64,000 nt of DNA from Methanobacteriota archaeon (GTDB taxonomy: Archaea > Thermoplasmatota > Poseidoniia > Poseidoniales > Thalassarchaeaceae), in the NCBI GenBank assembly GCA_004195615.1, contig PSPW01000002.1, positions 58,045 to 122,044 on the forward strand, read 5' to 3'. Shown piece by piece: positions 13,096 through 53,871 of this stretch (positions within the stretch are counted from its first letter, which is position 1; each line of letters opens with the position of its first letter). Made by a program: the position numbers and the translations under genes. The notes under the pieces are model-generated. The model was given only the letters and a program-made list of their open reading frames with translations. It was not told where the DNA came from and did no database searches.

Positions 13096-13099
13096 CGAT

Positions 13100-20238: not shown

Positions 20239-20353
20239 GGAATGGGTGAGTCAGTTGGGCAAAATTGGAGTTGCTGGAAAGAAAGCGATTTTGTCAACTT
20301 CTGGAACTGGGAATTTAGGCAATTTTAATGTCCTCCTACTCTGTAGGAGGGGT

Positions 20354-23300: not shown

Positions 23301-26300
23301 TGATTACCAATTCATGGGCTCTGAAATGCTGGGGGGGCAACAGCAACGGGCAGTTGGGAATAGGTTCTACTTCTTCCTCCAACAGCCCATCGACGGTCAC
23401 CGTCGGTGGGAATGCCGTGGCAGTGTCCGCCGGGGGCTCTCACACCTGCGCCCTACTCGATGGTAACAATGTGAAATGCTGGGGTGACAACAGCAACGGG
23501 CAGCTCGGGGACGGTGGGACGAACCAGCAGAACGACGCTGCCACAGTGGGAGTCTCTCTGACTGGAGTGATAGCAATCGACTCTGGAGATAGCCATACCT
23601 GCGCGGTTGACTCCAGTGATTCCCTCTACTGCTGGGGAGACAGTGCAAATGGGCAAGTCGGCGATGGCAGCACTTCCGATCAAATCACATCCCCCATTGA
23701 AATCACACTAGGACAGAATCTAGGTGCTCTGTCAGTCTCATCTGGGTCATCTTACACCTGTGTTGTTGGTAGTAACGACTTGGCCATGTGCTGGGGTGGC
23801 CATGGTTCGGGGGCCCTTTCCCTCGGGATCTCCCCTTCTGAGTTCACAATCCCCATGTGGAGTTATATCAGCTCGTCGGAGAGGGATTGGAACGATAATG
23901 GAGACCTGAACATATTCGAAGTCGGCGTAAGCAATGACGATGATGGCGATGGCTTCCCGAACACTGTCGACAGCGAACCCAGCAATCCAACCGTTGCTGT
24001 GGACTGCTCATCTGGGTCATACGGCAGGTTCACGTGCAGGCAGGCCACTCCTGGATACTACGTCAGTGGAACCGGGAACACCGTGATGACTCCAGCTAGT
24101 CCCGGGCACTACGTGATCGATCCCGGTGCAACCTCAGAAGAGCCATGCATCATGGGAGAGTTCCAGAGGCTCTCTGGTCAGACCTCATGCGATGACGCAG
24201 AGCCCGGATACTACGTTCCTGACCCGGGAGCGTCTGAGGGGACTCCGTGCCCACCAGGCAAGTACAACGACCTATCTGGGCAGAGCTCGATAACTGCTTG
24301 CAAATGGGCCGAATCTGGTCACAGCGTCCCGGTACTCACCCAAATGACATCGGGGGCTTCGCACTCCTGTGCCATCCTGGATGACGGTTCGGTCAGCTGC
24401 TGGGGTGATAACAACAACGGGCAGCTCGGGGATGGTTCGAGGTCACCAAGCCTCGAGCCGGAGAAGTCTTCCATGCCCCTGGGTAGGAAGGCAGTGGAGA
24501 TTTCCGCTGGTTCGTACCACACATGCACGATGTTCGACGACGGTTCAGTCCGCTGCTGGGGGTCGAATGAATTCGGACAGCTAGGGGATGGCACTACTGT
24601 CGAAAGAACGACTCCCATCACAGTAGACCTTGGGGAAGGGAAGAGCGCCCTGGGCATCTCATCCGGGGCATCTCACACATGTGCGATCCTCAATGATCGT
24701 AGCGTGAAGTGCTGGGGTGACAACAGCAACGGGCAGCTCGGGGACGGAACGACTACCGATAGATCGAGCCCGGTACATGCAGGCATGGGTGGCGAAGATG
24801 CCCTAATGGTCTCAACTGGCTCATACCACACCTGTGCGATAATGGAGGACAGGTCGGTGATGTGCTGGGGGGACAACTGGAACGGTCAGGTTGGTGATGG
24901 GACCTACATCGATAGGACATCGCCGGTAGAAATTGGAATTCCAAGCAACAGCAGCGCAGTATCCCTGGATGCGGGAGCGATGCACACATGCCTAGGGATG
25001 AATGATGGCTCCATGTTCTGCTGGGGGTACAATGCATACGGACAGTTGGGGAACGGCGGGTATAGCAACTCCAACTCGCCCATGACAGTCCCGCTAAGCT
25101 CCAACCAGTTACTAACATCCGTCCAAATAGGACTGTTTCACAGTTGTGCGCTATTCGACTCGGGACAGGTGGCCTGCTGGGGAGATAACAGCAACGGGCA
25201 GCTCGGAGATGGTTCACAGAGTGGAAGTGGGGTACCTGTAATTGTTAACCTAGACACAAATGCAACATCAATCGCCGTCGGTCAGAGGCACACCTGCGTC
25301 ATCCTGGATGATGCTAGCCTGCAATGCTGGGGGGCTAACGAAGCCGGCCAGCTCGGGGATGGATCAAACTCGAATCGGGACAACCCGACGGTAATTGACC
25401 TCGGTCACGGCTCAAAGGAGCAATTGCCCTGCGCACCGGGATCATACCAACCAAACCCCGCCCAAACCACGTGCATCCTCGCTGACAGGGGATTCATGGT
25501 CCCACAATCGGGGCAAACTAACCAGACGGGATGCGTGTCGGGATACTACTCGAGCCTGAAGGGGCAATCGGTATGCACCCCTGCCTCGAGGGGTTACTAC
25601 GTATCAGAGGTCAATTCTGCTTCACAAACTCCCTGCCCCAGTGGTCAATCGACTTTGGAGGAGGCCTCTACCTTCTTCGACATGTGCTTCGCCGACTTCG
25701 ACGGGGATGGTACACCTGACCAGTTCGACACCGACGCCGACAACGACGGAGTACTGAACGGCGATGACTACGACTGGTTGGATCCGGAAGTCTCCGCTGA
25801 CTCGGATGGCGACAGGATTCCTGACATCTATGACGAAGATGACGACAACGACGGTGTCAATGACACGGACGACCCATTCCCAATGGATCAAGGGGAGTGG
25901 GAAGACAAGGACGGTGACGGAATCGGGGACAACTCAGATCCGGACGATGACGGGGATGGCAGGAGGGACATTTTCGACGTGTTCCCGAATGACGCGAACG
26001 AGTGGTCGGATGCCGATGGGGATGGCATTGGAGATAATTCCGACGCAGACGACGACAACGACGGTCGGTGCGATGACACCACCTATTGGACACCTAATGA
26101 GATCCCACCAAACAGTGGCCCGAGTCAGGACGGGGACAACATCCCCGATTGCTACGCCTCCGCAAAGGGAGATGCATTTCCATTCGATGCGAATGAGACT
26201 GATGACACAGATGGGGACAGCATCGGGAACAACGTGGATACGGACTGCGATGGCGATGGGTGGATCAACCCGGTCCCTTGCACAATGAACAGTGCTGGTG

Positions 26301-26872
26301 AGAACGGCACAGATGCATTTCCCCTAGAGGACTGGAGATGGTCCGACTCGGACGGAGACGGCCACGCCGATCAGGGGAAGAACGCCGATGTCTTTCCCGA
26401 TGACCCGACAGAGTGGATGGACAGCGATCGCGATAGTGTGGGCAACAACGCCGACGAGTGCCCATTCGAACCCGGGATTAATCCGAGCACTGATGACTTC
26501 ATTGTACTGCTAAGCCTACCTGGTAACGACCTTGGGTGTCCTATTCAAGCGATCCTCGGGGATGAGATCATAGTAGATGAGTCGGAATCCGACGATGCTG
26601 GCTTTGATAGTGCAGAAGCCCCCGACTTTGACAATGATGACATTCCTGACTTGCTGGATATGGATGACGACAACGACGGGATTCCGGATATAGAGGACGG
26701 GATCCTCGGGGACGAGAAGTGGTCCAGAGATCCATTCAGGCCCTTCACCTACGAGAATTGGGCCATTATCGCCATTTCGATATCCTTCATCGGGATAATG
26801 GGAAACAGGGTGATCGGTACGAAGAACAGGAGCATCTCCAACATCCGCTCTAAGAAGATCAGGATTCAATGA
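20354..26872 (+). CDS. Giant membrane-anchored surface protein: S8 subtilisin-like protease, RCC1-repeat beta-propellers, Cys-rich GYY modules, acidic Ca-binding DxDxDG repeats and C-terminal TM
   Basis: Track start 20246 is GTG. ATG at 20354 follows GGAGGGG and begins a signal peptide (MPSVNAVRSRLSLLLVGLMLFPSV). Catalytic triad motifs VMDSGLD, HGHGTHVSG and GTSMATP. More than 15 CWGxNxxGQLGDG RCC1 repeats. C-terminal TM WAIIAISISFIGIMG followed by a basic tail. Confidence 0.85.
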   Translation: MPSVNAVRSRLSLLLVGLMLFPSVMTILSYQIGNDELLDDTRMDSIDLALETHSILGVPESGDPSHGWKSDSGNVGEASLFYRIATYVPIEEWVTTTGEGYMSGWFALAHDYPVPSDWRTELGDLGMECRTFYSPQGFHCNVPKMTPLELSDIGVIGAFRLDSTDKLAPDVIPLVEGESSGAVMQGERYVMNVVLSGSDELANLISTGIEVVDYRTDRIVEVVVDQKDVVELVSLDFVEWVEPKYPVQLDNEAAAGIIDVDWVGEASNMVSFGGGSLTGAGVIVGVMDSGLDTVVECTSISNCNSLNSGIHADFAGRIAGVVSYTCGSCTDGPEDQHGHGTHVSGSVLGDGTNSPDGSDNSGMAPGAHLFMQSILCGASLCNPSYDIFFTEAHNAGARVHTNSWGSGPSADGTSCGGSCLAYYSSSAFEIDTEANSLTDLTILFAMGNDAMDCTYNSYGQSSCYGGKDGEINLGAMNQQATAKNILSVGASENLRDTLPLYATPWRNFCNSDPPCDLPFTNEKWGTSPIRDDTASDNPEGMAAFSNRGPTNDGRIKPDIVAPGTWILSTKSELRTDSPSSDVGDYYTHLFGTSMATPITAGSVALVIEYLNNIGAYNCNLANNPSSDQCPESALIKAILASGAHDMDGQYTTGGNFNGNGAEEKAPNNHEGWGRIDLQQLVYSGFTEGVEISTLESHSFRLSVPDTGIEDFRVVLSWNDPANSPSAGKQLINDLDILLKSPSGTVQTYTNDDLNNLVGISLGENPEVGDWEIIVTGANVPSGPQKYYLASSIGVIEDMRHPVSDGFIEPGFQTGSIFTETTMSSGGDHLCAILDDSSLQCWGDNSFGQLGDGTTTDRLTMTEVGLDAARTAVSISSGKDHTCSILDNGGLQCWGRNNHGQLGDGTAVHSSSPVDVSLSGVPVQLSSGDWHSCAILDDASLQCWGANEAGQLGDGTNADSSTPVSVSIGENVLAVSTGSNHTCVITNSWALKCWGGNSNGQLGIGSTSSSNSPSTVTVGGNAVAVSAGGSHTCALLDGNNVKCWGDNSNGQLGDGGTNQQNDAATVGVSLTGVIAIDSGDSHTCAVDSSDSLYCWGDSANGQVGDGSTSDQITSPIEITLGQNLGALSVSSGSSYTCVVGSNDLAMCWGGHGSGALSLGISPSEFTIPMWSYISSSERDWNDNGDLNIFEVGVSNDDDGDGFPNTVDSEPSNPTVAVDCSSGSYGRFTCRQATPGYYVSGTGNTVMTPASPGHYVIDPGATSEEPCIMGEFQRLSGQTSCDDAEPGYYVPDPGASEGTPCPPGKYNDLSGQSSITACKWAESGHSVPVLTQMTSGASHSCAILDDGSVSCWGDNNNGQLGDGSRSPSLEPEKSSMPLGRKAVEISAGSYHTCTMFDDGSVRCWGSNEFGQLGDGTTVERTTPITVDLGEGKSALGISSGASHTCAILNDRSVKCWGDNSNGQLGDGTTTDRSSPVHAGMGGEDALMVSTGSYHTCAIMEDRSVMCWGDNWNGQVGDGTYIDRTSPVEIGIPSNSSAVSLDAGAMHTCLGMNDGSMFCWGYNAYGQLGNGGYSNSNSPMTVPLSSNQLLTSVQIGLFHSCALFDSGQVACWGDNSNGQLGDGSQSGSGVPVIVNLDTNATSIAVGQRHTCVILDDASLQCWGANEAGQLGDGSNSNRDNPTVIDLGHGSKEQLPCAPGSYQPNPAQTTCILADRGFMVPQSGQTNQTGCVSGYYSSLKGQSVCTPASRGYYVSEVNSASQTPCPSGQSTLEEASTFFDMCFADFDGDGTPDQFDTDADNDGVLNGDDYDWLDPEVSADSDGDRIPDIYDEDDDNDGVNDTDDPFPMDQGEWEDKDGDGIGDNSDPDDDGDGRRDIFDVFPNDANEWSDADGDGIGDNSDADDDNDGRCDDTTYWTPNEIPPNSGPSQDGDNIPDCYASAKGDAFPFDANETDDTDGDSIGNNVDTDCDGDGWINPVPCTMNSAGENGTDAFPLEDWRWSDSDGDGHADQGKNADVFPDDPTEWMDSDRDSVGNNADECPFEPGINPSTDDFIVLLSLPGNDLGCPIQAILGDEIIVDESESDDAGFDSAEAPDFDNDDIPDLLDMDDDNDGIPDIEDGILGDEKWSRDPFRPFTYENWAIIAISISFIGIMGNRVIGTKNRSISNIRSKKIRIQ
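23152..23214 (+). repeat. 63-nt perfect intragenic repeat, copy 1 (RCC1 blade), identical to 25300..25362
   Basis: Exact match catcctggatgatgctagcctgcaatgctggggggctaacgaagccggccagctcggggatgg at both sites, 2148 nt apart and in frame. Confidence 0.9.
25300..25362 (+). repeat. 63-nt perfect intragenic repeat, copy 2
   Basis: Identical to 23152..23214. Further 38-nt identical blocks (tgctggggtgacaacagcaacgggcagctcggggacgg) occur at 23477 and 24710. Confidence 0.9.
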
Positions 26873-26957
26873 TGGTGCAGGGGGCAGGATTTGAACCTGC
26901 GAAGCACTACGCACTGGGACCTAAACCCAGCCCCTTTGACCACTCGGGTACCCCTGC
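26873..26957 (-). tRNA. tRNA-Leu (anticodon TAG), class II, CCA encoded
   Basis: Reverse complement folds as GCAGGGG acceptor, 3-bp D stem, anticodon stem-loop CTGGG-TTTAGGT-CCCAG, long variable arm, T arm GCAGG-TTCAAAT-CCTGC, discriminator A and CCA. 3' end abuts the stop codon of the giant gene. Confidence 0.85.
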
Positions 26958-27012: not shown

Positions 27013-27097
27013 TGGTGCAGGGGGCAGGATTTGAACCTGCGAAGCACTACGCACTGGGACCTAAACCCAGCCCCTTTGACCACTCGGGTACCCCTGC
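27013..27097 (-). tRNA. tRNA-Leu (anticodon TAG), second identical copy
   Basis: 85 nt identical to 26873..26957, separated by a 55-nt spacer. Confidence 0.85.
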
Positions 27098-31913: not shown

Positions 31914-33926
31914 ATGTTCATGGGTGCTTTCATGAAACCTATGGGGAGAGTATCACGTGCCTCTGCGATTGCTCTTGTAGTAGTTTTCTTGTCTCCGATA
32001 GGACAATTCTATGATAATCAAGAAGTCATGATTGGGGCGCATGACCGGATGGAGCAATTTGGAGGTGGTGGATCTCTGGAAGAGCAATGCAGTTCGATTA
32101 CTTTCGAGGATATATTTCTCTACAACCAGGCAATTTTCGAGGTTCGTGTCAATGATGACTGGAATAGTGCCCAAGTAGATGCCAAGGCATGGATCAACTG
32201 GTCCCTTGCAGATGACATTAGAGAAGATCTGGATTCTTTCTTGGAAGGGATTGTACCATCGGGTGGTGATGGCTGGCTATCTTCGGATGAAATCGATGCA
32301 ATGGTTTCGATTGCTGCTGACTGCCTTGAGTACAGTATCACAAGGATAGGGATTCGAGATGGCTCCCCTCACAGAGGAGGTACAGGAGTGAGTTGGATGA
32401 ATACAACATGGGAGGATGATCAGACCAACATTGGCCATTTCAACGGAGTACCTCCTCGGCATTCACAAGCGAGGGACTGCCAGGGGTTTAGCCAGGATGG
32501 TTGCTCCGAGGTTCCAGTAGTCCCAACTTCGGAGAGAGATTGCGACACTGAAATTAATGAATCAATGGGAGTTGATGAGTGCAGAATCGAACTATGGCTA
32601 AATGCCACCATGATAATTGATGGGGTTTCTGATCCTAATGACTTCACGATTGCGTTCAATTCATCGAACATGAGCAATGCGAGACTGGACTTCACTTTCC
32701 CGGTGATGCCAGACCTGAGAATGGACATGTGGGAGGAGTGTGAAGGAAGGTTCGTAGGTGCTGAGGGAGATAATCCTCTCACAGACTCTGCTCCAATCAG
32801 AGGAAGTTGCTTAGGTGACGGTTCCGCAAATTATGAATTAAGAACCAACGACGATGGCAGTTTGACTTACTCACTCAACTCAAACTTCTCAAGAGAAGAG
32901 TGGCCATTGGGCGAAGATGTCTTTGCAGACTTCACGACATCTCCAATTCCTACAGATGAGGCCCCTACTTGGACCCAACAAGCACCTTCTGATGGCATCT
33001 GGATCCCAGTACTCGAGGAAGGGGCAACCAAGTTGTCAACCTGGGAAGATATTGCATCTTGGTTCGATGACGAATCGGGAGTTTCCAATCTAGATGTCGT
33101 CTGCAATTCCGGAGGTAGTGAGATTTCGCAGAGCATCGATGGTTCATTGTGGATCAACGTCGACGGAGTCTCAGAAGTCTCATGTGAGGCGATTGATGCT
33201 ACTGGAAAGTCCAGTGGGAACAGAACTTGGCACGTTGGAGTACCAGTTACAATTTCAACGACTGCATTAATCCTTCAAGAACAGCATCCCCTGAGAATTT
33301 TCCATTCGGAAGCATGGACTGAAGACGTAACAGTGCGCCTAACACTGACCCAGAACGGCCAGCATAGTGGGATTCAGGAATTCCACAAAGGAAATTCATC
33401 ATATCAGGACGTGGTAATTCAATCACAAGGAGTTGTTCCCGGTCCTGTCAATATTTGGATTGAAGTAGTGGTTGGAGAGTTTTCATCCCAGCAGACCTTA
33501 GATCTAGGTATTGTGAAGGAAAGTGCACCTCCTTCACTGACCATTGGCTCTGGCATATTTGATGGTAAAATGTGGAGGGTGGGCGGACAATTCAGTGACC
33601 CAGATGGCGAGATTGTAACTTTCACAATAGCAACCAGTGGGAAGGATTTGGGTCAGATTATGGTATCTGGAAATACCTGGGAGAGCGAATGGATTGATCT
33701 TAGTATGTTTACCTCAGAATTCGTCGAGGTGAAGGTCACAGGTTGTGACCAGTCAGGCAAGTGCACAACCACTAGCATTACCGTAGATATCTCATTAATT
33801 GCCGAAGAAATCCCAGACCTGCCGGATGAGAGTGAGGATTCAGTGGGCAGCATTCCCGCTTCGGGTATCCCCTCACTGGCCATAGCAATCTCAGTGGCAG
33901 TACTTTTCAGAAGACGGAGCGCATGA
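31914..33926 (+). CDS. 670-aa secreted surface protein with C-terminal TM anchor, unknown function
   Basis: Signal peptide (RVSRASAIALVVVFLSPIG), acidic Cys-containing extracellular region, C-terminal IPASGIPSLAIAISVAVLFRRRSA. Confidence 0.6.
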   Translation: MFMGAFMKPMGRVSRASAIALVVVFLSPIGQFYDNQEVMIGAHDRMEQFGGGGSLEEQCSSITFEDIFLYNQAIFEVRVNDDWNSAQVDAKAWINWSLADDIREDLDSFLEGIVPSGGDGWLSSDEIDAMVSIAADCLEYSITRIGIRDGSPHRGGTGVSWMNTTWEDDQTNIGHFNGVPPRHSQARDCQGFSQDGCSEVPVVPTSERDCDTEINESMGVDECRIELWLNATMIIDGVSDPNDFTIAFNSSNMSNARLDFTFPVMPDLRMDMWEECEGRFVGAEGDNPLTDSAPIRGSCLGDGSANYELRTNDDGSLTYSLNSNFSREEWPLGEDVFADFTTSPIPTDEAPTWTQQAPSDGIWIPVLEEGATKLSTWEDIASWFDDESGVSNLDVVCNSGGSEISQSIDGSLWINVDGVSEVSCEAIDATGKSSGNRTWHVGVPVTISTTALILQEQHPLRIFHSEAWTEDVTVRLTLTQNGQHSGIQEFHKGNSSYQDVVIQSQGVVPGPVNIWIEVVVGEFSSQQTLDLGIVKESAPPSLTIGSGIFDGKMWRVGGQFSDPDGEIVTFTIATSGKDLGQIMVSGNTWESEWIDLSMFTSEFVEVKVTGCDQSGKCTTTSITVDISLIAEEIPDLPDESEDSVGSIPASGIPSLAIAISVAVLFRRRSA

Positions 33927-34534
33927 AAATGAGTTTTTCTGGAAGAGTGAGCCGTGAGTCCCATTTAGGGGGATTGCTAATAGATTTCGAAGGCAAGCCA
34001 CCTCGACTAGGAGCCAGAATAAGAATCTCAGGGGGGAAGATCATCGGAAGGGTGGATACAGTTCTTGGGCCGGTTGGATCCGCACTAATACACATCCACC
34101 CCCTGTACAATGGAATAGATGCCAGGGCATCTGTCGGCTCTCCCGTCGAGATTGCCCCTAGAGATAATTCACATCAGGGACGCCCCAGAGGTAGACATTC
34201 TAGTGGAAATTTCCGTGAAAGGGGAGGTCCAAGGAAAGGTTCCTCTAGGGACAATGGTGGTCGAACCTTCCGTGACAACAAGGGAGTCGGGCGCGGGAAC
34301 AGGGGTTCTGGCGGCAAGGGTGGTCGAACCTTCCGTGACAACAAGGGAGTCGGGCGCGGGGACAGAGGTTCTGGCGGCAAGGGTGGTCGAACCTTCCGTG
34401 ACAACAAGGGAGTCGGGCGCGGGGACAGAGGTCCGAATCAACCAAGAAGAGGACCAAAAGGAGAAAATAGGAGCTCGAACAATTCTAGACGAAGAAGGGA
34501 TTCGGGTAAGAGTGGAAGGGGCAGGAGACGTTAG
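33923..34534 (+). CDS. gar1: H/ACA ribonucleoprotein subunit Gar1 with long C-terminal RGG/GAR-like tail
   Basis: ATGA overlap with the upstream stop. N-terminal approximately 80 aa match the archaeal Gar1 beta-barrel pattern (LGGLLIDFEG...IGRVDTVLGPVGSALIHIHP...SVGSPVEI). About 120-aa Gly/Arg-rich tail with three 21-aa repeats. Confidence 0.75.
   Translation: MKMSFSGRVSRESHLGGLLIDFEGKPPRLGARIRISGGKIIGRVDTVLGPVGSALIHIHPLYNGIDARASVGSPVEIAPRDNSHQGRPRGRHSSGNFRERGGPRKGSSRDNGGRTFRDNKGVGRGNRGSGGKGGRTFRDNKGVGRGDRGSGGKGGRTFRDNKGVGRGDRGPNQPRRGPKGENRSSNNSRRRRDSGKSGRGRRR
34256..34432 (+). repeat. Tandem 63-bp coding repeat (2.8 copies) encoding GGKGGRTFRDNKGVGRGDRGS units of the Gar1 tail
   Basis: Units start at 34256, 34319 and 34382. 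Copies 2 and 3 are identical and copy 1 differs at about 3 positions. Confidence 0.9.
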
Positions 34535-34596
34535 ACTCACACCCCAGCATTCTTCATCCGCCCTATTCTGCGTGTTTTGTGGAGAAGAGTGCCGAG

Positions 34597-35562
34597 ATGA
34601 TTTGGCTGGATGCCATAGAAGCTAACGAAGAGGGAGACAGGTCGACAGCACTGACCCTAGCCGAAGAAGTGGTTTCACTCGAAGAAGATCACGCTGATGC
34701 TTGGTTTGCTGTTGCTCAATGGACTCTGCCAATTGACTCACGTGGAAAGCAGGCGATGCCCAACATAATTCAGGCGTCCAAGTCTATGGCTTCAATCAGG
34801 AAGGTGGTCGAACTGGACCCTCAAAACGAGCATGCATGGAGGATCGGTGGAGAAATCATGGTCGGTCACTTGGGAATGCTCGAACATGGACTTGAATGGT
34901 GGGAAGGGAGAAAAGAAGCTGCACCAAGTGATGTACTTCCCTACTTCGAACAGGTTTCCATACTAATCAGACTTGGTTATTTCGAAGAGGCTGGCGAGTA
35001 CCTAGACGTCATGGACAGGCTAATCGAATCTCAACCCAGCAAGTCCCTGGAATCGAGGGCAAGGAGACTGAGAGGTATTTTCGAGGAGCAGGGTTCAATG
35101 GAGAAGGAACTGGGTTTTGAGCCACAGAACGGCAAAGACGATTCATGGGAGCTAATCAGCAGGATGAGGAAGAAGAAACCGATTACCGAGACTTACTTCC
35201 TCCTCATGTTCGTAATGCCCATCGTTTTCTTACTAGGTTCTGCGGCTATGATGCTGTTTGCAGAGGTGCCTTACAGCACTGCGATAGTGATGCTGCTAAT
35301 CATCGCAATGTACTTCGGGATTGCTCGCTTCTCCAGGAGGCTTTTGCTCAAACTGAACAGACCTGAGTCTTTCCTGAACAGGGCTATTGATATTGAGAGT
35401 TCTAGTGGTATGGTATGCGTCCCGAATGAGATAAGGGAGTCGAAACTCTACTCTCACGTAGTCAGAAGCAGAACACCGGCATACCAAGAAAGGCTGGGGA
35501 TAATCGAGGAGTCGAGTGAGCCACTCCCTAGGAAGTGGACCCTCAACGTCCCTGAGCTCTGA
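34597..35562 (+). CDS. Hypothetical protein with TPR-like N-terminal domain and two TM helices
   Basis: Track start 34579 is GTG. ATG at 34597 is preceded by GGAGA. Helical repeat region followed by hydrophobic segments (FLLMFVMPIVFLLGSAAMMLF, IVMLLIIAMYFGI). Confidence 0.5.
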   Translation: MIWLDAIEANEEGDRSTALTLAEEVVSLEEDHADAWFAVAQWTLPIDSRGKQAMPNIIQASKSMASIRKVVELDPQNEHAWRIGGEIMVGHLGMLEHGLEWWEGRKEAAPSDVLPYFEQVSILIRLGYFEEAGEYLDVMDRLIESQPSKSLESRARRLRGIFEEQGSMEKELGFEPQNGKDDSWELISRMRKKKPITETYFLLMFVMPIVFLLGSAAMMLFAEVPYSTAIVMLLIIAMYFGIARFSRRLLLKLNRPESFLNRAIDIESSSGMVCVPNEIRESKLYSHVVRSRTPAYQERLGIIEESSEPLPRKWTLNVPEL

Positions 35563-38500
35563 TCAGCCACCGCCGCCCTTCTGCTGCTGCGAGTACTGGG
35601 CATAGTACTGCGTAGCGTACTGCCGTGCCATCTGCTCCTCGTACCCTTGTGCCACTAGTTGCTGGACATAGGCCTCGACTGGGTCCATCTGCTCGACGCC
35701 GCCGAAAGACTCCACAGAGTCCTGCTGTTCTGCAGTACCTCCTCCCCTTCTCATGAACATCATCGTCACTGCTAGAACTGCGATCAGAAGTAAGGCACCA
35801 ATGCCAGCGAACATCAGAGTCGTAGAGTCCCCGCTTTCCCCTTCACTTCCGTCCGTCTCTTCGATTGGTCTTGGAACGGTGTACAATTGGATTTGGTCAT
35901 CGATCACATACGACCCCTCTGTGACCCTTATGTGGATGATCCCAGCATTCCCATCAAGCTCGAGATAGAGGTGAGAGATGTTCAGAGACAGAGAGTACTG
36001 GTCTCCGTCACATAGCCCATCCTGCCAGTCGAAGCGTCCGAGCGCCTTCTGGGCCGTCTTGATTCCATCGCTCTTGTCGAAAATCGAAGTGTCATCGAGC
36101 GATGCTTCTACCTTCACGTCGCAATCGGCACTTGCATCGTTGTCGACAACGGTACCGGTGATGTTCACGATGTCGGACTCCAAAGCCGAGAATGAGTCTC
36201 CATCGGCAGTAGAGATGCTATCGAATTCCACATCCGGAGCAGAGTCTCCGAACATCTCTCCTACGACCTCGAAGAATACCCTGGTGGGAGCCTCGTTACG
36301 CTGGTCCCTCTTGTCGTAGACAGTCAACTCGACCATAATGGTGTTCTGTCCCGCTGTCAGGTTCCTGAAGGTGTAAGTCCACTCGACCTCGCTGCCGGGT
36401 AACTCGTAGACGTGCACATTGTCCCCATCTCCATTAACAGACCAACTGAACTTCCCGATTCCAGTTCCAACGTCACTGCTGTTTGCTGAAGAAAAGCTGA
36501 TGCTAGTGTCGCCCGTATCAGAGAGTCGGACCCGATACTTGGGTGAATCAACCATAATCCAGTTTCCGTCGGCATCCTGCTTTCCGGTCGGTGTCTGCTG
36601 GTAACCTACGAATTCGACGAATTCGGTGAACATGGAGTCCTCCATTATTTCGATATGAGCCTCAGGTGGGGTGCTGTCCGCATTGATGTCATTCGTGTAT
36701 ACCGAGATGTTGGTAATTCTGGTGTTTCCATGAGAGTCGTGCAGGAACAGCCAAATCCTCCACTCGGCGTCAATCTTGCAGCCAAGTTCGGCATTCTCAT
36801 CTGGAACGCAGAAAGTAGCAGTCGCGGGGTAGACTGAGTCTTCTCGATGAATGTGGTTGTTGTCATCTCCTAGTGTTTCTCCGTCCCATCCAGTCACAGC
36901 CTCTCCATTAGCTGACTCGATCAACCAGTCTGCGTGGATGCCAGTCACATCGGTCTGGAATCCAAAGTCTAGCTCGGCTGAGCTCTTGATTGCCGTTCTT
37001 GCATAGGCGCCCGACAATACGTCAATCGATTGGACAACCTCGTCTATCGTGAGCTCGAAGCCCACACCAGCAATCTCGAATCCATCGGGATATGGGGACA
37101 TGTGGAAGTCCAGAAGATTGGCTAGCATCGGGAAGTTTGGGTCGCCGAACGGTTGTGACACTGCTGGGTTCTCGACATCTATGGTAGTAACAATCATCCC
37201 ACCCTGGTGGTAGTTGCAAGTAGACAGCAGGGACAGGCTGGGATTTTCGGAGTCCCTGATTATGGTGTGGAATGTCCCGCCATCGTTTATCTTCCCGCCC
37301 TCGGTCCCTCCTGCTGCCCCATCACTGCAGACCTGAGGTATGTTCTCAGATTTGACCTGGTTGAGGTCTAATGCAGAGAGTGCGACGTGCGACCCTCCGT
37401 TGATTCCTGCTAAAGAGGAGGGGTTGATGCCCGATATTAGCGGGTGGAACGGGTCGATTAGACTGACGTTCTCGTAAAGTATACGGTGGTCCACTGTGCT
37501 ATTGAAATGGTCTCTCATGACGACGTTCATCCCGAATGGCAGCCTATCCAGTGCGTTCGGGTTCTGTATGTCATCGAAATCGGAGTAATACGGGCCGAGA
37601 TGAACCTGCAGAGTACCTCCCTCCCTCATGAACTCGATAAGTGACTCTGTGAGGGTGATGTCTGCATTGTCGGGGTTCGGAGTTCCCAGTAGTTCGTAGT
37701 ATTCCCCGTATTCGACGCTGTAGTCAGTCTGCCAAGGGAGGAGTATCTTGGAGTAGTGCTCAAACCAGTCCTCCATGCCGTACGTGTTCCAGTCCTCTAC
37801 CTCAAACTGGGTGTATGTCTTGTTCATGGCGGAAAGATCCTGCTTGACCCTTTGCAGTCTGTTCTGGTCGGTCGGGTTCGATAGGATGACCACGTCGATG
37901 TTGTCTAGGAATTCGATATCGAAGTAGCGTTCGTTGCCTGAAGCCTCGCTCGTCTCAGACAGAATAGACTGGAAGCTGATGTTGTACGTGTGAGAGTCGA
38001 ACCACAGGTCGTATGGAGCGGTCCAGTTGGCTTGTGACCTCTGATGAGGGTCAAGCACGAATGGCCCGTTGTCGGAGGTCTGCTCGTAGACGGTCTGGCC
38101 AGTTTCCTCATCGACTATCTTCATGGTGACCTCGTACATCCCCTCGATTACCCCATTGAGCATCGGAACAGCGAAGTCGTGTGACTTCTGACCCTGTGGG
38201 TTCGTAGCGTAAACGCATGAGTACACGGCATCTGCTACACAGTCCAGCACATCGGCCTGGAGGAGTGTGATGTCCGCATTGGCTATTTCGAAAAGAATCG
38301 TTGAGACGTTGTTAGCCTGGCTTATCTCAGGCTTGTCGAACCACTTCGATGCATTGTCGGTGTTATTGTACAGCGTCATCAGGTCGATCCTGTATAGACC
38401 GCTCTCAAAGTCATGAACACCCATCTCGACAACTCGCCTCTGGCCAGCGTCCATCCCAGTCACGGCCTCGGTGTACGAGCCATCGTCGGTGAAGGTGTAG

Positions 38501-41500
38501 TCGTCCACCCTGATGTTGTCGATCGCGAAGCCGGCGTATCCGGCATTGCCATTGACTCCATCGTCATTGGAGTAGAACCTCCACGTGAAGGTGACGTCAG
38601 TCCCTGCTAGTGAGGTGCACTCGTCCGTCCATGCGAAAGAGTCCTCAGCAGTCTGGTTGAGCAGGTGCACGTGCGTCAGGTCGATCCTCGCCGTGTTGAC
38701 TAGGTTGTCGGAGTCGAACCAAGATACGAAGCCGTCCTCCCCTATTCCGCCCGAGTGGTCTCCTACGTACTCTACTTCCTCGTAGAGGCCGTTCTGATCG
38801 AAGTCCTCGCAGTAGTTGTAAATCGTCTCCGTGTATGGGTTGAATGCTAACCTCAGGCCGTTCTCGTTGAGGTCCGTCCAGCTTCCATAGATTATTCCCT
38901 GATACACCTCTCCATCCCTGACCCAAGACACCTCAAGATAGGAGAAGTCCCTGACGGATTGGATGTTTCCGTTCCTGTCGGAGATGTGATCTCCCTCAGC
39001 GAAGTAGTCGAAGGTGAGGAATGTGAAGTCTGCACCGCTGTCTGTGAGTTCGATAGGCTCCAACGTCAGTGTCTCGTTCCAGCTGTCCCCGTAACCATCA
39101 TCGGGGTTACCCAGCCAGTAAGCCTGGTTCTTGAACACGCCTTGGTTCTGAGGGAGCATCGCGGCCGATCCCAATGAATCGTCCAATCTGCTTCCGTTTT
39201 CGTTTCCATCGTCATCCCAAATCGGTTGGAATCCTGAGAAGTCCTCTGCTGCGATTAGCTCAGGGAGCGCGTTGCTGACCTTCGCTTCGATGTCGAAGTC
39301 GACGAATGTGTTGCCCCAGTTCTGCACGCCGACCGTGATTGGCATCTCCCCTGACGCATAGCGTTCTCCGTTCAGGAGAAGATCCAACCATGGCTCTTCA
39401 AACAGTCCTGGGTCGTACAGGTTCCTTACAGTCAACTGGAACCTTGTCTGGTCGTTAGTGCTATCCTGGTCCACTTGACCTCCACCCAGGTTGAAGTTGG
39501 ACAGTACGGTTGAGATGTAGTAGGTTGTGTTGTCTACGAAGTCTGCCGTGAGTTGGACCTGCAATGACTCGCCTGCAATTAGGTCGAGGTTTGTCAGCTG
39601 CTGGCTCTCGACCGTAGAATCGCCGAAGTTCACGTCGCTAGTCCTGACGGTGATGTTGTCGATTGCGAATCCATCCAATCCAGAGTAGTCCAGAGAGCCC
39701 TCTGGGCCCGTGGTTCCCTCTAGTCCACTGCGGAAACGGAATCTGATGTCAATGGTCTGCCCGGCATAAGGAGTGAGGTCGATCGAGTCTGCCTTCTGGT
39801 CTAAGCCCCCGTCTTCCCAGCAAATATCGTAACTGAGGGAGCAGGAATCTCTGATTCCCCCTGAGTCTGTGTAGTTGTTCCACATTGTTGTGTGCCAGTC
39901 TCCGAAGAAGTTGGCGTTGTAGTCGTTGTACTCTGGGTCGGGTACACTTGAGACCCTCTCCTCGATTCGGTACTTTCTCTCGTTGTCCCAACCTCCATAT
40001 CTCCAAACGGTCTCCCAACCAGTTCCATCGCTCCATACCTCTACGCTACAGGAATCCTCGTACAACCACCTCTCAATGACATCATACGGCTCGTTCAAGA
40101 AAAGCTCAAAGAAACCGGCGCTGCATATAGCATCCATGTCCAAGAATGCGGCATCCGCTCCGGAGAGATCTATTCCCTCGAGAATCAATGCCTCGTCCAT
40201 GTGGTTGTAGTATCCAGTGTCCTCGGTTGAGTTGCCGTCGTCGAACACGTAGGTGTGCTCGACTCCGGACCAGAAGTAGTTCGTCGGGTTTGTCTCAGCT
40301 TCCCAATATGGGTATGCGACTGGGCCATCCCAAGACTCGTTGTTCTCTTCTGGGTTTCCATCTGAGGCGAAGCACTTGTCGGTCCCGTTCGGCATGCACT
40401 GGTAGTCGCTGTTGTTGAAATGAGCGACATCGTACTCGTCGTAGTCTGTGGTACTGACCCAGTACCTGTCCTCATCGATATGCCATGACGAGTTGCCGGA
40501 TTCGTACTCGCCAGTGTACGAGTACTTGTTGAAGGAGGCTCCACCGGTGTTGATGTCCGGTGAGGATGACTCGAAATCGTTGAAGTAGACCACCGTGTCA
40601 GATCTCCCGAGAACCTCCCTGACTTCGAGATCGACGTCTAGGCTACCGCCAGAGATGGGCATCAGGCCAGTGTTCTTGACCGTAACGTTAACCCAGCGGT
40701 TTCCCTCACCGACGATGCTCTGGAAGGTAGCGGGATCGGTTACGGACGGTTCAATCTCTACTCTAGTAATCCCCAAATCGAAGTTGTCCAGAACCAGGAC
40801 TGAGAGGTAATCGCCCTGTCCTGCGTATCCCTGAGTGTCTAGCCACATGGCGTTATTCGAGAATCTGTAGGTGTAGTCCTCTTGCCCGATTACGACCTCT
40901 AGGGCGCTGCCCTCTGAGCCTTGGAGTTGCCCTGGCATTGCCATGGTTGGCCTCCTTCCGACATCGAAAGACAGGGGTGCTAGGTACCCGTTGCTATCTG
41001 GGTCAGCGAGTAGTATCTGCACCGTGTTTAGGGCACGGAGGTTTGGCCTCAGAAGGAATGTCTGATTCTGGACTGTGGACTGCTGGGTGTCTAGCAAGGT
41101 CAGAGAAGTGGGTACGAAGAAATCGAGTTCACCGTCTTGGTTGACATCGGCTATGGTGACCGAGGCCCCCAGGAAGTCTCCGAAATCAACGTAGTTCTGT
41201 GTGTCCCATCCCGAGGTGGTCTTGGTTGCGTAGGAAATGTTGCCGGTGATGCCGTCAACTGCTGCGATGATGTCTATCTCATTGACATCGTCGTTTGGGG
41301 TTGAGTCGGCGATGTCTAGCCCGTACAAAGGATAGTCGTGCTCGGCATCGAGCGTGAATTCGTGAATGGTCCCGGAACCCGTTGGATCCATTGGATTGGG
41401 GTACTGACCTGTTACACAGTCGTACTCCAGTACTGTCATGTTGTCGTAGGTCCCCGAAGAGTATCCCACTCCCGCATTGTAAGGTGGGGTCCTGAGTAGC

Positions 41501-42327
41501 CATATGTCGAGATCCTCGCACTCCCCAGGGACGGGATCTCCTGTCAGTGGGTTCTCCAAAAGGTCCTCATTCCAATTTCCGAGCTTGAGAAACTGGTAGT
41601 ACCCGTTGGTAAGTGGGACGGAAATCGGAGCATGCTGGTTCGAAGGGATGCTGTAGTCGGGACCCTTGTAAATCTGGATGAACTGGTTGGCGAACGTAGC
41701 GTCGGTCGAGGAGAAAACCACGTCGATGTATCCGTCGTCGTTGATGTCCCCGACATCGAAGTCAGCAAGGTATGGATTGATGACCGTGATTGTCTCGAAC
41801 ATCTCCTCCCATTCGTTTACCCTCTCGTCGCAGTCCCCCTTGAGGACGGTTAGATTCGCAGGCCTGATGAATGACTCGCCGACGAACCTGACATTCTGCT
41901 GATAGTAGATGACGTCGTTCACTTCATCCCCATCGACATCGGCAATCTCGACCCGATTGCCATCGGCCACGTCTCGGAAACCGGCTCTGAACGAGTCGTT
42001 GTTTGAAATCTGGACGTCCTGCCTGTCTGCGAATCCTCCGTTTCCATCATTGTACAGGAAGCTGATGAAGTGCCCGAAGCCGCTACCTGATGCGATGTCA
42101 TTGTCACCATCGCAATCAAGATCTCCGATTGAGATGTATAGTGGATCCCTCTGAACAGCATACTGAGTGGTGTGAGAAGCAGAAGCATATGGGACTGCCG
42201 AAACGAAGAGCGATGTTAGCATCAGGAACACTAGCCCTAATGCCCTCCTGCTCTTTCCGTGCTCATGGTTTCCAGACATGTTCTCGTTCATCATGGTTGT
42301 TCGGACTTTCGGACCACTCTTATGCAT
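35563..42327 (-). CDS. Giant (2254-aa) surface protein with FG-GAP/VCBS-like Ca-binding repeats, C-terminal TM and Q-rich cytoplasmic tail
   Basis: Signal peptide (RRALGLVFLMLTSLFVSAVPYASA). Repeated DxDxDG motifs (DLDCDGDNDIA, DVDGDEVNDVIY, DVGDINDDGYIDVVF). C-terminal TM LMFAGIGALLLIAVLAVTMMFM then RRGGG...QQQKGGGG. Confidence 0.8.
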   Translation of the reverse strand: MHKSGPKVRTTMMNENMSGNHEHGKSRRALGLVFLMLTSLFVSAVPYASASHTTQYAVQRDPLYISIGDLDCDGDNDIASGSGFGHFISFLYNDGNGGFADRQDVQISNNDSFRAGFRDVADGNRVEIADVDGDEVNDVIYYQQNVRFVGESFIRPANLTVLKGDCDERVNEWEEMFETITVINPYLADFDVGDINDDGYIDVVFSSTDATFANQFIQIYKGPDYSIPSNQHAPISVPLTNGYYQFLKLGNWNEDLLENPLTGDPVPGECEDLDIWLLRTPPYNAGVGYSSGTYDNMTVLEYDCVTGQYPNPMDPTGSGTIHEFTLDAEHDYPLYGLDIADSTPNDDVNEIDIIAAVDGITGNISYATKTTSGWDTQNYVDFGDFLGASVTIADVNQDGELDFFVPTSLTLLDTQQSTVQNQTFLLRPNLRALNTVQILLADPDSNGYLAPLSFDVGRRPTMAMPGQLQGSEGSALEVVIGQEDYTYRFSNNAMWLDTQGYAGQGDYLSVLVLDNFDLGITRVEIEPSVTDPATFQSIVGEGNRWVNVTVKNTGLMPISGGSLDVDLEVREVLGRSDTVVYFNDFESSSPDINTGGASFNKYSYTGEYESGNSSWHIDEDRYWVSTTDYDEYDVAHFNNSDYQCMPNGTDKCFASDGNPEENNESWDGPVAYPYWEAETNPTNYFWSGVEHTYVFDDGNSTEDTGYYNHMDEALILEGIDLSGADAAFLDMDAICSAGFFELFLNEPYDVIERWLYEDSCSVEVWSDGTGWETVWRYGGWDNERKYRIEERVSSVPDPEYNDYNANFFGDWHTTMWNNYTDSGGIRDSCSLSYDICWEDGGLDQKADSIDLTPYAGQTIDIRFRFRSGLEGTTGPEGSLDYSGLDGFAIDNITVRTSDVNFGDSTVESQQLTNLDLIAGESLQVQLTADFVDNTTYYISTVLSNFNLGGGQVDQDSTNDQTRFQLTVRNLYDPGLFEEPWLDLLLNGERYASGEMPITVGVQNWGNTFVDFDIEAKVSNALPELIAAEDFSGFQPIWDDDGNENGSRLDDSLGSAAMLPQNQGVFKNQAYWLGNPDDGYGDSWNETLTLEPIELTDSGADFTFLTFDYFAEGDHISDRNGNIQSVRDFSYLEVSWVRDGEVYQGIIYGSWTDLNENGLRLAFNPYTETIYNYCEDFDQNGLYEEVEYVGDHSGGIGEDGFVSWFDSDNLVNTARIDLTHVHLLNQTAEDSFAWTDECTSLAGTDVTFTWRFYSNDDGVNGNAGYAGFAIDNIRVDDYTFTDDGSYTEAVTGMDAGQRRVVEMGVHDFESGLYRIDLMTLYNNTDNASKWFDKPEISQANNVSTILFEIANADITLLQADVLDCVADAVYSCVYATNPQGQKSHDFAVPMLNGVIEGMYEVTMKIVDEETGQTVYEQTSDNGPFVLDPHQRSQANWTAPYDLWFDSHTYNISFQSILSETSEASGNERYFDIEFLDNIDVVILSNPTDQNRLQRVKQDLSAMNKTYTQFEVEDWNTYGMEDWFEHYSKILLPWQTDYSVEYGEYYELLGTPNPDNADITLTESLIEFMREGGTLQVHLGPYYSDFDDIQNPNALDRLPFGMNVVMRDHFNSTVDHRILYENVSLIDPFHPLISGINPSSLAGINGGSHVALSALDLNQVKSENIPQVCSDGAAGGTEGGKINDGGTFHTIIRDSENPSLSLLSTCNYHQGGMIVTTIDVENPAVSQPFGDPNFPMLANLLDFHMSPYPDGFEIAGVGFELTIDEVVQSIDVLSGAYARTAIKSSAELDFGFQTDVTGIHADWLIESANGEAVTGWDGETLGDDNNHIHREDSVYPATATFCVPDENAELGCKIDAEWRIWLFLHDSHGNTRITNISVYTNDINADSTPPEAHIEIMEDSMFTEFVEFVGYQQTPTGKQDADGNWIMVDSPKYRVRLSDTGDTSISFSSANSSDVGTGIGKFSWSVNGDGDNVHVYELPGSEVEWTYTFRNLTAGQNTIMVELTVYDKRDQRNEAPTRVFFEVVGEMFGDSAPDVEFDSISTADGDSFSALESDIVNITGTVVDNDASADCDVKVEASLDDTSIFDKSDGIKTAQKALGRFDWQDGLCDGDQYSLSLNISHLYLELDGNAGIIHIRVTEGSYVIDDQIQLYTVPRPIEETDGSEGESGDSTTLMFAGIGALLLIAVLAVTMMFMRRGGGTAEQQDSVESFGGVEQMDPVEAYVQQLVAQGYEEQMARQYATQYYAQYSQQQKGGGG

Positions 42328-42372: not shown

Positions 42373-42846
42373 TTACTTCATCTCAAGCCAACTGGGGTTG
42401 GGTGAATAGCTTACTTCCGCTCCGCCGTAGACCTTCTCTAGCCGTCCCATAATCCAAAGTCTATCTAAGAAAATCTCGAGGTCGATTCGCTCTCTGTTCA
42501 TGCGCTCCCCCACTAGTACTTCGATGGTTCCGACGTCTAGCGAAGAGTGTCCGTGCTCCCTTACTATTAGAGTTAGTAGAATCTGCAACCATGCCTCTGC
42601 CATTGGGTCTCCAGATAGGTTATTGTTCAGAGGCTGGAGGTCCTCAATTTCGTCCAAGAAAGCCATAATTGCACGTATGTCCGGATCGGTCTTCTTCGAG
42701 ATGCCATGTTCATCGGCCGCGGATTGCAGGTCCAAGTCTCCTACCTTCCTCACTACTGAGGGGATTCGAGATGGGTCGGGCGGTGGTCCGGGAAGGCCTT
42801 CTTCTTGCTCATCTTCTTGCTCATCTTCTTGCTCATCTTCTTCCAT
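42373..42846 (-). CDS. Hypothetical 157-aa acidic protein with N-terminal (EDEQ)3 repeat
   Basis: ATG start 12 nt downstream of the aconitase stop. Tandem 12-nt DNA repeat catcttcttgct x3 at 42803-42840 encodes EDEQEDEQEDEQ. Confidence 0.45.
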   Translation of the reverse strand: MEEDEQEDEQEDEQEEGLPGPPPDPSRIPSVVRKVGDLDLQSAADEHGISKKTDPDIRAIMAFLDEIEDLQPLNNNLSGDPMAEAWLQILLTLIVREHGHSSLDVGTIEVLVGERMNRERIDLEIFLDRLWIMGRLEKVYGGAEVSYSPNPSWLEMK

Positions 42847-52470: not shown

Positions 52471-53871
52471 ATGGCTAACAAGGACCGTTGGTGGGACAAA
52501 GAAGAAGACCTCCCCTCTGAAAGCACGGGCTCGACAGACTCGAAGCAGGACGTGGAAGGACTCCTCAATGAGGCTGAGAAGAACCGGATCAAGCGTGAAG
52601 AGGAACTGGCAAAGGCTGAGCATGACTACAAGGTTGCCCAATTTGATAAGAAGAGAAAGGAACTCATGCCAGAAACTGGTACCCAGAGAGGGCCCGGGGA
52701 ACACAAGATCAGAGCCACGTCTAATGGCATGTACCGCACGAATGGAACGATAAACGGCAGAGATGTCACGTTCTTGGTAGACACGGGTGCTACTAATTGC
52801 GCAATGAGTACGAAGATTGCCGAGTACGTTGGAGGGAAACCGGGGAAGAGTTACTGGTCTAGCACAGCCAATGGCAGGGCTAGGTCATTCGAATTGCCAC
52901 TCGATGAAGTCAGAGTGGGGGAGATCGTAGTTCGAAACGTAATGGGGGCCTCGGGCGAAGGGATGCATGATGACTATGTCCTCCTTGGAATGTCTTTCCT
53001 GAATGAGGTCGAGATGGATATTGACGATGACGTGATGACCCTCCGTCAGAATGGATCCGAGAGGGACGTTCAAGAAGGCAAGAAGGGGGTCGAAGACGGG
53101 GTTTTGGGCCTTTGGTGGCTTTCACCTGGAGAGGCAGTTTCGATTGGGATTGCTGCAATGATTGCCATTTTCTTCTTCGGAATGGGAGCAGTCGTAATGG
53201 CCGGGGAGCCGGTGTACGAATATACTGCTGGAGTCGTGCTGGAAGGCACCGAGTGGTGGGAAAACGAGTACGAGTACGAGGATTGCGCATATGACGAATA
53301 CAATGATGTCTACTATGACTGCTATTACTGGTACGAGTATGAATGCGGGGCTGATGTAAAGTACTTCTTCGACGTTGACGGTGCCGAGTTTAGGTCACAA
53401 GGGTCGTTGTTCTTAGGGACGTGGTCGGATTACTGTCTAGAGTTCGCGGAGGACATCGAACTACCGATAGGGAGTTCGGTGACGGTTTGGTACAATGTCG
53501 ACAATCCAGAAGACAGTAGCTTAGATGAACCATTTGGAAGTGGAATTCTCTTCTTCTGCTGTGGGCCAATTTTCCTACTGATCTTGATTGTCACTTTGGT
53601 CAACGCCAGATTCAGCAACGGACCCAAATCCGGCTGGGGAACCGATTTCGGTATTCAATTTAATTCTGGAGGAGGATATCATGGAGGACCCCAGGGTCAC
53701 GGAGGGAGATACTGGGGTCCTAGCTGGGGCCCGAGGATCCGTTTCGGGAGACCATCAAGGAGGGTGCGTACTTCCAGGAGAAGAGGAGGGAGATCATCCG
53801 GCGGCAGAAGGTCATCCGGCGGCAGAAGGTCATCCGGCGGCAGAAGGTCATCCGGTGGCAGAAGAAGATGA
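52471..53871 (+). CDS. Retropepsin-like (clan AA, TIGR02281-type) aspartic protease fused to two TM segments, an aromatic/acidic Cys-containing loop and a (GGRRSS)n tail
   Basis: FLVDTGAT active-site motif at 52780-52800 with flanking TIGR02281-like blocks (INGRDVTFLVDTGATNCAMS...LLGMSFL). TM helices at about aa 215-245 and 350-372. C-terminal GGRRSSGGRRSSGGRRSSGGRRSSGGRRR. Confidence 0.7.
   Translation: MANKDRWWDKEEDLPSESTGSTDSKQDVEGLLNEAEKNRIKREEELAKAEHDYKVAQFDKKRKELMPETGTQRGPGEHKIRATSNGMYRTNGTINGRDVTFLVDTGATNCAMSTKIAEYVGGKPGKSYWSSTANGRARSFELPLDEVRVGEIVVRNVMGASGEGMHDDYVLLGMSFLNEVEMDIDDDVMTLRQNGSERDVQEGKKGVEDGVLGLWWLSPGEAVSIGIAAMIAIFFFGMGAVVMAGEPVYEYTAGVVLEGTEWWENEYEYEDCAYDEYNDVYYDCYYWYEYECGADVKYFFDVDGAEFRSQGSLFLGTWSDYCLEFAEDIELPIGSSVTVWYNVDNPEDSSLDEPFGSGILFFCCGPIFLLILIVTLVNARFSNGPKSGWGTDFGIQFNSGGGYHGGPQGHGGRYWGPSWGPRIRFGRPSRRVRTSRRRGGRSSGGRRSSGGRRSSGGRRSSGGRRR
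53795..53868 (+). repeat. Tandem 18-bp coding repeat (4 copies, catccggcggcagaaggt) encoding the GGRRSS units
   Basis: Units start at 53795, 53813, 53831 and 53849. Seen directly in the sequence. Confidence 0.9.

Follow-up and report, generated by a model that had tools for sequence, protein, structure and literature searches.

Archaeal Gar1 is described in reviews as lacking both of the glycine/arginine-rich regions of eukaryotic Gar1 (PMC7991803, PMC8096250), and a hidden Markov model survey of glycine/arginine-rich (GAR) regions in 148 archaeal proteomes returned no match (PMC7608942). Does this description hold for the archaeal order Poseidoniales (Marine Group II)? The question is raised by one gene, here called gar1, in the 64-kb stretch of DNA that we analyzed (part of contig PSPW01000002.1, referred to below as the window), which a first-pass annotation had read as an archaeal Gar1 with a long tail rich in arginine and glycine. 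We put the probability at roughly three in four that the gene encodes the Gar1 of the H/ACA complex of a Marine Group II archaeon (Poseidoniales, Thalassarchaeaceae), and that this Gar1 has a disordered arginine-glycine (RG) tail with a tandem 21-residue unit, varying among strains by whole units.

The Gar1 barrel and its basic tail

The open reading frame (ORF) list places the gene at 33923..34534 (+), with 203 amino acids (aa). In public gene calls and in almost every homolog the start is the second ATG, at 33929, which gives a 201-aa protein with the N-terminus MSFSGRV, conserved in homologs; the coding sequence, including the stop codon, is taken here as 33929..34534 (+), and initiation at the ATG of 33923 (+) would lengthen the protein by Met-Lys. 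The same 201-aa sequence (P0001) is present in NCBI and in JGI (IMG metagenome 3300001683, scaffold GBIDBA_10000016, 224,693 bp). All 20 hits of a genome scan with a narrow alignment were to Poseidoniales, three of them to single-cell genomes, and the named homologs belong to Candidatus Thalassarchaeaceae.

Residues 1-78 (33929..34162, +) form the Gar1 beta-barrel core, which ends with the invariant motif SPVEIAPR and was delimited by AlphaFold2, Foldseek and sequence profiles. The AlphaFold2 model of residues 1-92 has six strands, with a predicted local distance difference test (pLDDT) score of 79, and a Foldseek comparison of the barrel model with the PDB returned Gar1 chains in all of the top 12 places, with archaeal chains the best. 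The closest matches were to P. furiosus Gar1 (2EY4/2HVY; target-normalized template modeling score 0.84, root-mean-square deviation 2.1–2.2 Å, 23–24% identity), and Naf1, aIF5B domain II and RimM ranked below Gar1. A profile of 35 diverse barrels from the family, built without canonical Gar1, reached P. furiosus Gar1 (2hvy_B) at E = 4.3e-5, with Gar1 accounting for eight of the nine PDB matches listed, and the family profile also reached short Pfam-positive Gar1s (P0231, 33.5 bits; P0234, 33.8 bits). Reciprocally, a canonical Gar1 profile recovered the window family from 5.8 billion sequences at E = 1e-11 to 1e-6, including a one-copy form 78% identical to the window protein (P0006, E = 9.2e-9). 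That search returned no other type of protein from Marine Group II, a result that is suggestive only. The Gar1 signature G-x-V-D-x-V-x-G-P-V aligns with the P. furiosus and yeast proteins, and several family members carry the JGI name 'rRNA processing protein Gar1'. The N-terminal domain is thus established as a real Gar1 ortholog by fold, family profile and reciprocal profile homology. As a separate observation, the ortholog at L005 (JAAZXW010000013.1, 6136-6138) has an in-frame TAA at barrel codon 46, with the remaining gene intact, and this is either a sequencing/assembly error or a recent pseudogene.

The barrel is followed by a polycationic C-terminal tail of 123 aa (residues 79-201; 34163..34531, +), recognized from composition, pLDDT and codon-position bias. 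The tail consists of 27% G, 24% R, 10% S, 9% N, 7% K and 7% D, with a net charge of about +28 and an isoelectric point of 12; the dipeptides RG and GR each occur 10 times, and RGG only once. In the full-length AlphaFold2 model, residues 91-199 have pLDDT values below 50 and no secondary structure (77–90 in the barrel), and the tail is predicted to be disordered. Substitutions in the tail fall at codon positions 1/2/3 in numbers of 13/14/47 against L006 and 8/16/31 against L007, and this bias toward third positions shows purifying selection in the Gar1 frame. Two tail motifs, the FRDNKGGG core and RRRDSGKSGRG at the C-terminus, stay conserved between lineages of differing repeat number; the conserved basic motif at the C-terminus (RRRRDSGKSGRGRRR; 34487..34531, +) lies downstream of the variable repeats. 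Because a SGRRRDSGKSGRGxRRR block is kept family-wide beyond repeats of changing number, the reading frame must be preserved through the array.

The first-pass annotation had described an RG-rich tail, partly of 63-bp repeats. Analysis with Tandem Repeats Finder (TRF), composition and predicted disorder support a basic, RG-containing, disordered tail built in part of such repeats. An origin as an artefact of this one assembly can be dismissed, since the tail is common to all 120 of the close homologs listed and to 20 genomes of Poseidoniales, some of them from single cells. A basic tail is found in every Poseidoniales ortholog among the matches listed, and the charge and G/R bias of these tails are kept despite turnover of their sequences.

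Copy-number variation of the 63-bp array

The in-frame tandem array within the tail spans 34252..34432 (+), with unit 1 at 34252-34314, unit 2 at 34315-34377 and a partial unit 3 at 34378-34432. TRF reported a period of 63, 2.9 copies, 97% matches, no indels and a score of 341, making the array the top-scoring tandem repeat of the window (the next scored 135). The unit encodes the 21 residues GGRTFRDNKGVGRG(N/D)RGSGGK. Three of the 63 positions distinguish copy 1 from copy 2; no difference separates copies 2 and 3 across the 55 bases that remain of copy 3, and the array contains no exact repeat longer than 66 bp. The encoded unit is as first described and the repeats are indeed near-perfect, so that only the word 'perfect', which had headed the original description, was a slight overstatement.

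Possible length polymorphism had also been proposed, and it was found among closely related strains. Three independent assemblies with the same gene order, and with 12 kb of flanking sequence about 97% identical, encode proteins of 201, 180 and 159 aa, and their DNA alignment contains exact 63- and 126-bp indels, corresponding to 3, 2 and 1 units. Copies within a strain have strain-specific substitutions in common (GTC..GCG..GAC in the window, ACC..GCA..GGC in L003), indicating recent duplication or homogenization. A motif count in the 120 closest homologs listed gave three units in 12, two in 51, one in 40 and none in 15. More than one copy state occurred in 14 of 42 groups with near-identical cores, and tail lengths stepped by 21 or 17 residues. 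One locus (L012) has an independent array with a 51-bp unit at 100% identity, and another (L004) has at least 4.1 copies of the 63-bp unit, beyond an N-gap. TRF found no array in L006, though the encoded protein has two diverged units, so older duplications are under-reported by this program. The array is a coding variable-number tandem repeat: its period is divisible by three, its copy number differs among near-identical strains and its flanks are collinear.

Comparison with known Gar1 tails and with orthologs across the order

Does the tail amount to a eukaryotic GAR domain? The GAR domains of eukaryotic FBL, NCL and GAR1 have at least 10 RGG, 55–77% G, a G/R ratio of 2.1–4.4 and other residues mostly below about 24% (PMC9957100). 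Using the motif definitions of the same study, we counted 0 tri-RGG, 0 di-RGG, 0 tri-RG and 3 di-RG in the tail; the longest stretch with the GMF pattern is 13 aa, and the G/R ratio, at about 1.1, and the share of non-G/R residues, at 49%, lie outside the GAR ranges. The tail does have the GAR feature of a disordered terminal extension of more than 50 aa on an RNP protein (residues 91-199). Because it has one RGG, 27% G and 49% non-G/R residues, it falls outside the published GAR definition, and it is C-terminal only, whereas eukaryotic Gar1 has both N- and C-terminal GAR domains; the description 'eukaryote-like GAR tail' is therefore only loosely true, and the accurate label is an RG-containing basic disordered extension. 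Eukaryotic Gar1 (yeast 3U28, human 7TRC) and the window protein have in common the core barrel and a disordered R/G-containing extension on an H/ACA subunit, and by analogy accessory RNA binding would be a plausible role for the extension (PMC8096250). Nothing seen here points to arginine methylation of the window tail or to a nucleolus-like compartment. In-frame tandem duplication, independent of eukaryotic GAR domains, is the most likely origin of the tail.

Canonical archaeal Gar1 (for example that of P. furiosus; PDB 2EY4, 2HVY, 3MQK) resembles the window protein in its six-stranded barrel, in the G-x-V-x-D-V-x-G-P-V signature, in reciprocal profile matches and in a basic stretch directly after the barrel. 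The window protein differs in having a barrel that has diverged below the Pfam and NCBIfam thresholds, and a glycine-rich tail of 123 aa, versus 0–60 aa, with a tandem repeat of 21 residues that is polymorphic. The view that archaeal Gar1 is a bare barrel of 75–100 aa, from which the first-pass annotation started, proved oversimplified: in our survey, which is thin outside Poseidoniales, Pfam-positive archaeal Gar1s frequently had basic tails of 10–60 aa, some of them RG-rich, with one such cluster from Pyrodictium. The Poseidoniales tails are an exaggerated form of a feature already found in archaeal Gar1.

The most interesting aspect of the family lies outside the window, in orthologs with RGG stretches and RanBP2-type zinc fingers. 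An exhaustive profile search yielded 117 representatives at 50% clustering, many of them 200–461 aa long, in whose tails RGG/DRRGG stretches alternate with one to three RanBP2-type fingers (PF00641, 64–90 bits). Fingers were present in 63 fetched proteins, from both Thalassarchaeaceae and Poseidoniaceae; finger-bearing relatives include P0126, P0128, P0197, P0203, P0205 and P0224 (loci L024 and L025), and most are labeled 'hypothetical protein' in NCBI. Many of them end in a common motif, FRKARGKxxGHAHNRxPK. A different form is represented by P0146 (L026, 2346-2936), in which a 57-aa stretch has nine RGG, 56% G and 18% other residues and qualifies as a GAR domain by the eukaryotic criteria; its tail is built of in-frame 15-, 21- and 39-bp DNA repeats. 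Both P0126, with fingers, and P0146, with the GAR stretch, lie between homologs of the genes that flank gar1 and are therefore positional orthologs. These same-locus orthologs, with true RGG arrays or with RGG and one to three fingers, had been missed in the earlier reading of the window.

Like the window protein, the RGG and finger orthologs (P0126, P0128, P0197, P0205, P0224 and P0146) occupy the same locus, and their barrels are 50–66% identical to that of the window protein; they have basic, disordered-looking tails with in-frame repeats. They differ in their fingers or, for P0146, in the nine-RGG stretch, whereas the window protein has neither a finger nor an RGG array: it gave no PF00641 match, and no finger pattern occurs in any ORF of the window. 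Because the finger and GAR forms are positional orthologs and the P0146 tail is repeat-built, we conclude that the order shares a fast-evolving Gar1 C-terminal region that is remodeled in place by tandem duplication and by domain gain and loss. The well-established RGG-zinc finger (RanBP2)-RGG module of the FET proteins (FUS, EWS and TAF15) offers a parallel (PMC9957100), since RGG stretches on either side of RanBP2-type fingers occur in the relatives, though not in the window protein. Unlike FET proteins, the relatives are without an RRM or prion-like domain, have the module on a Gar1 barrel and come from archaeal hosts, and the window protein is without a finger altogether. One further match to the barrel profile was P0158, a low-complexity sequence of 689 aa with ten tandem stretches, which is apparently no relative of Gar1 but a translation that is spurious or repetitive.

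Certain activities can be postulated for the two parts of the protein. Archaeal Gar1 attaches to the Cbf5 catalytic domain and controls thumb-loop behavior and substrate turnover (PMC8096250), and by homology the window barrel would dock on this domain and control the thumb loop, and thereby substrate loading and product release, as happens in the complex of P. furiosus. The tail may act as a multivalent, non-specific RNA-binding arm, as its composition and work on the RGG domains of yeast Gar1 suggest; deletion of those domains alters catalysis and substrate exchange (PMC8096250). By the same analogy, such an arm could raise the affinity of the complex for rRNA substrates or guide RNA, with a valency that would grow with each repeat. 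A possible model for avidity that depends on copy number is a yeast ribosome biogenesis factor whose unstructured motifs, positively charged and present in several copies, are reported to act together in binding RNA (PMC11662656). That factor resembles the tail in its repeated short, basic, disordered motifs; its sequence is unrelated to that of the archaeal tail, whose RNA binding is predicted. Copy number would shift by replication slippage or unequal recombination among the near-identical 63-bp units, as the sequence pattern suggests, and the copies within a strain may have been recently duplicated or homogenized. The window tail represents one state of an order-wide, fast-evolving C-terminal region that takes the form of RG repeats, RGG arrays, or RGG with RanBP2-type fingers. 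It is also imaginable, although we think it improbable, that Poseidoniales Gar1 independently gained modules of the nucleolar and FET type (RG/RGG arrays, RanBP2 fingers) that drive a multivalent, RNA-dependent clustering of the pseudouridylation machinery and a nucleolus-like organization of ribosome biogenesis, with a strength set by the copy number of each strain; if this were true, the repeat tail of the window would be one tunable state of a Poseidoniales clustering system.

Several results weigh against an H/ACA Gar1 with an RNA-binding, repeat-tuned tail. The N-terminal 78 aa or so scored 16.5 bits against Pfam PF04410, below the cutoff of 29.3, and 17 and 14 bits with the NCBIfam Gar1 equivalogs, whose cutoffs are 139 and 107. 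The window protein, searched as a single sequence against the PDB, gave no match, and a narrow profile built from close homologs came to yeast Gar1 at E = 1.7 only. The identification of the protein as an archaeal Gar1, made in the first-pass annotation, therefore stands on fold and reciprocal profile homology and not on a direct Pfam score. Pfam searches of 33 window ORFs, including gar1 and its two neighbors, and six-frame motif scans found no cbf5, nop10 or L7Ae in the 64 kb, and Rfam at gathering thresholds returned three tRNAs only and no H/ACA guide RNA in the same stretch; since none of these partners was found there, their co-occurrence in the genome of gar1 is assumed. It is odd, and unexplained, that an RNA-modification subunit should be so tightly coupled to the gene directly upstream, for a predicted surface protein. 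That the tail binds RNA is deduced from composition, in a sequence that lies outside the formal RGG and GAR definitions. Finally, because several short-read assemblies break inside the array, there is some uncertainty in the absolute copy numbers of individual assemblies.

Could the barrel be a Gar1 fold reused by a protein outside the H/ACA complex, such as a lineage-specific RNA chaperone or a basic protein associated with the ribosome or nucleoid? The sub-threshold Gar1 model score would be expected of such a protein, as would the family motifs SHEGGLL and SPVEIAPR, which are invariant here and absent from canonical Gar1, the unusual setting, flanked by genes for a surface protein and a TPR membrane protein, and the lack of H/ACA partners nearby in the window. 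We nevertheless regard this as quite improbable, given that archaeal Gar1 is the best fold match, above Naf1, aIF5B domain II and RimM, that profiles match canonical Gar1 reciprocally, that the signature aligns with the P. furiosus and yeast proteins, and that the canonical profile drew out no competing Marine Group II protein type. A neutral origin of the tail, in which slippage-prone repeats gather at the tolerant 3' end of gar1 as low-complexity sequence and copy number is without phenotype, is unlikely. Tail sequence, length and domain content do vary widely among orthologs, yeast Gar1 without its GAR regions has been reported as functional (PMC7991803), and a second window protein with a repeat-built RG/RS end hints at a genome-wide tendency; yet the third-position bias points to purifying selection, the FRDNKGGG core and C-terminal motif persist although repeat numbers differ, no ortholog listed in the order is without a basic tail, and charge and G/R bias outlast sequence turnover.

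Two further explanations concern the repeat itself. The three-copy array might be a short-read mis-assembly, expanded or collapsed, with the strain polymorphism reflecting the behavior of assemblers. Contigs L009, L010, L011 and L014 do stop inside the array, N-gaps interrupt it in L004 and L013, and the database entry P0057 is frameshifted. We consider this explanation very unlikely, however: with no exact repeat above 66 bp and with three substitutions private to copy 1, every unit can be placed with reads of at least 100 bp, and the three-copy structure of the window is resolvable by ordinary reads. The 1-copy allele comes from an assembly with k = 119 (by its contig name, 'k119_'), and by de Bruijn graph reasoning a 2-copy array would have been resolved there, since this k exceeds the 63-bp period. 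Many lineages also hold two or three mutually diverged units, which is impossible for collapse artefacts, and the copy series recurs in 14 independent groups. The 21-residue repeat could instead be a degenerate RanBP2-type finger that has lost its cysteines, with FRDNKGGG derived from FAFRDKCNRC. Same-locus orthologs have fingers with the half-motif F-x-F-R-D/E-x-C-N-R-C, and the presence of fingers in both families of the order suggests an ancestral finger. In an hhalign comparison of 103 repeat units with 69 fingers, though, the probability was 0.7% over 5 aligned columns, and we give this origin hardly any credence and reject it on present evidence.

The family is not new, since the protein is already in public databases and JGI labels some of its members Gar1. 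We found no description of Poseidoniales Gar1 tails in the literature searched, and nothing relevant on Gar1 in Poseidoniales or on RanBP2 fingers with archaeal Gar1. The window gene qualifies the textbook statement that archaeal Gar1 is a small barrel only. Poseidoniales are among the most abundant archaeal orders of the surface ocean, and a whole order of globally abundant, uncultured archaea has long RG-rich Gar1 tails, some with RGG arrays or RanBP2-type fingers; extensions of H/ACA proteins are thus not restricted to eukaryotes and can arise quickly through in-frame tandem duplication. The role of the arginine/glycine tails of the eukaryotic H/ACA complex has been called 'elusive' (PMC8096250), and near-identical proteins with 1, 2 and 3 or more repeats represent a natural titration of the effect of such a tail on the complex. 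There is also a practical side, in that most tailed Gar1s are 'hypothetical' in NCBI and the repeat breaks short-read assemblies.

Gene neighborhood and other features of the window

Gene order around gar1 is kept at every locus: a surface protein of about 670 aa, gar1, a TPR-like membrane protein and, facing them, a giant protein of about 2250 aa. In the window, the upstream gene (31914..33926, +; ORF list) encodes a predicted surface protein of 670 aa, which has a hydrophobic anchor at its C-terminus and only a weak Ig-like Pfam match. Its stop lies 2 nt before the gar1 ATG at 33929, a tight pairing that is conserved across the order, and a homolog is found directly upstream of gar1 in 20 of 20 genome loci and in L024 and L026; the two genes are probably co-transcribed. 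The downstream gene (34579..35562, +; public start 34597) encodes a TPR-like protein with transmembrane segments and weak TPR Pfam matches, and it follows gar1 at every locus whose contig reaches that far. Beyond it, a 2254-aa ORF with a C-terminal membrane anchor (35563..42327, -) is conserved beside the gar1 locus across the order. A faint FG-GAP match is on record for the gene of L024 in the corresponding position. Another giant ORF, of 2208 aa, lies at 20246..26872 (+).

Two ORFs overlap the repeat, one in another frame (34119..34625, +) and one antisense (34169..34540, -). Because it is chiefly the third codon positions of the Gar1 frame that differ among orthologs, both are shadows and not genes, as had been supposed from the start. 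The frameshifted entries P0057, L004 and L013 resemble the frame of 34119..34625 only at an assembly gap or error.

Besides gar1, one more gene of the window, at 52471..53871 (+), encodes a basic RG/RS tail built from repeats. Its product has 466 aa, with a retroviral-type aspartyl protease domain and DUF3592, and its C-terminal end, ...RRRGGRSSGGRRSSGGRRSSGGRRSSGGRR, is encoded by an 18-bp tandem repeat (53794..53864, 3.9 copies, 98% match). A perfect 12-bp tandem repeat (3.6 copies, 42800..42842) lies near the 5' end of a 157-aa ORF (42373..42846, -) that gave no Pfam match. Two tRNA-Leu(TAG) genes, 100% identical, stand in tandem 55 bp apart at 26873..26957 and 27013..27097 (-). An archaeal-type shikimate cluster at 10203..13894 (-), comprising chorismate synthase, a GHMP-type kinase, 3-dehydroquinate synthase II and a DeoC-family aldolase, is consistent with an archaeal housekeeping region.

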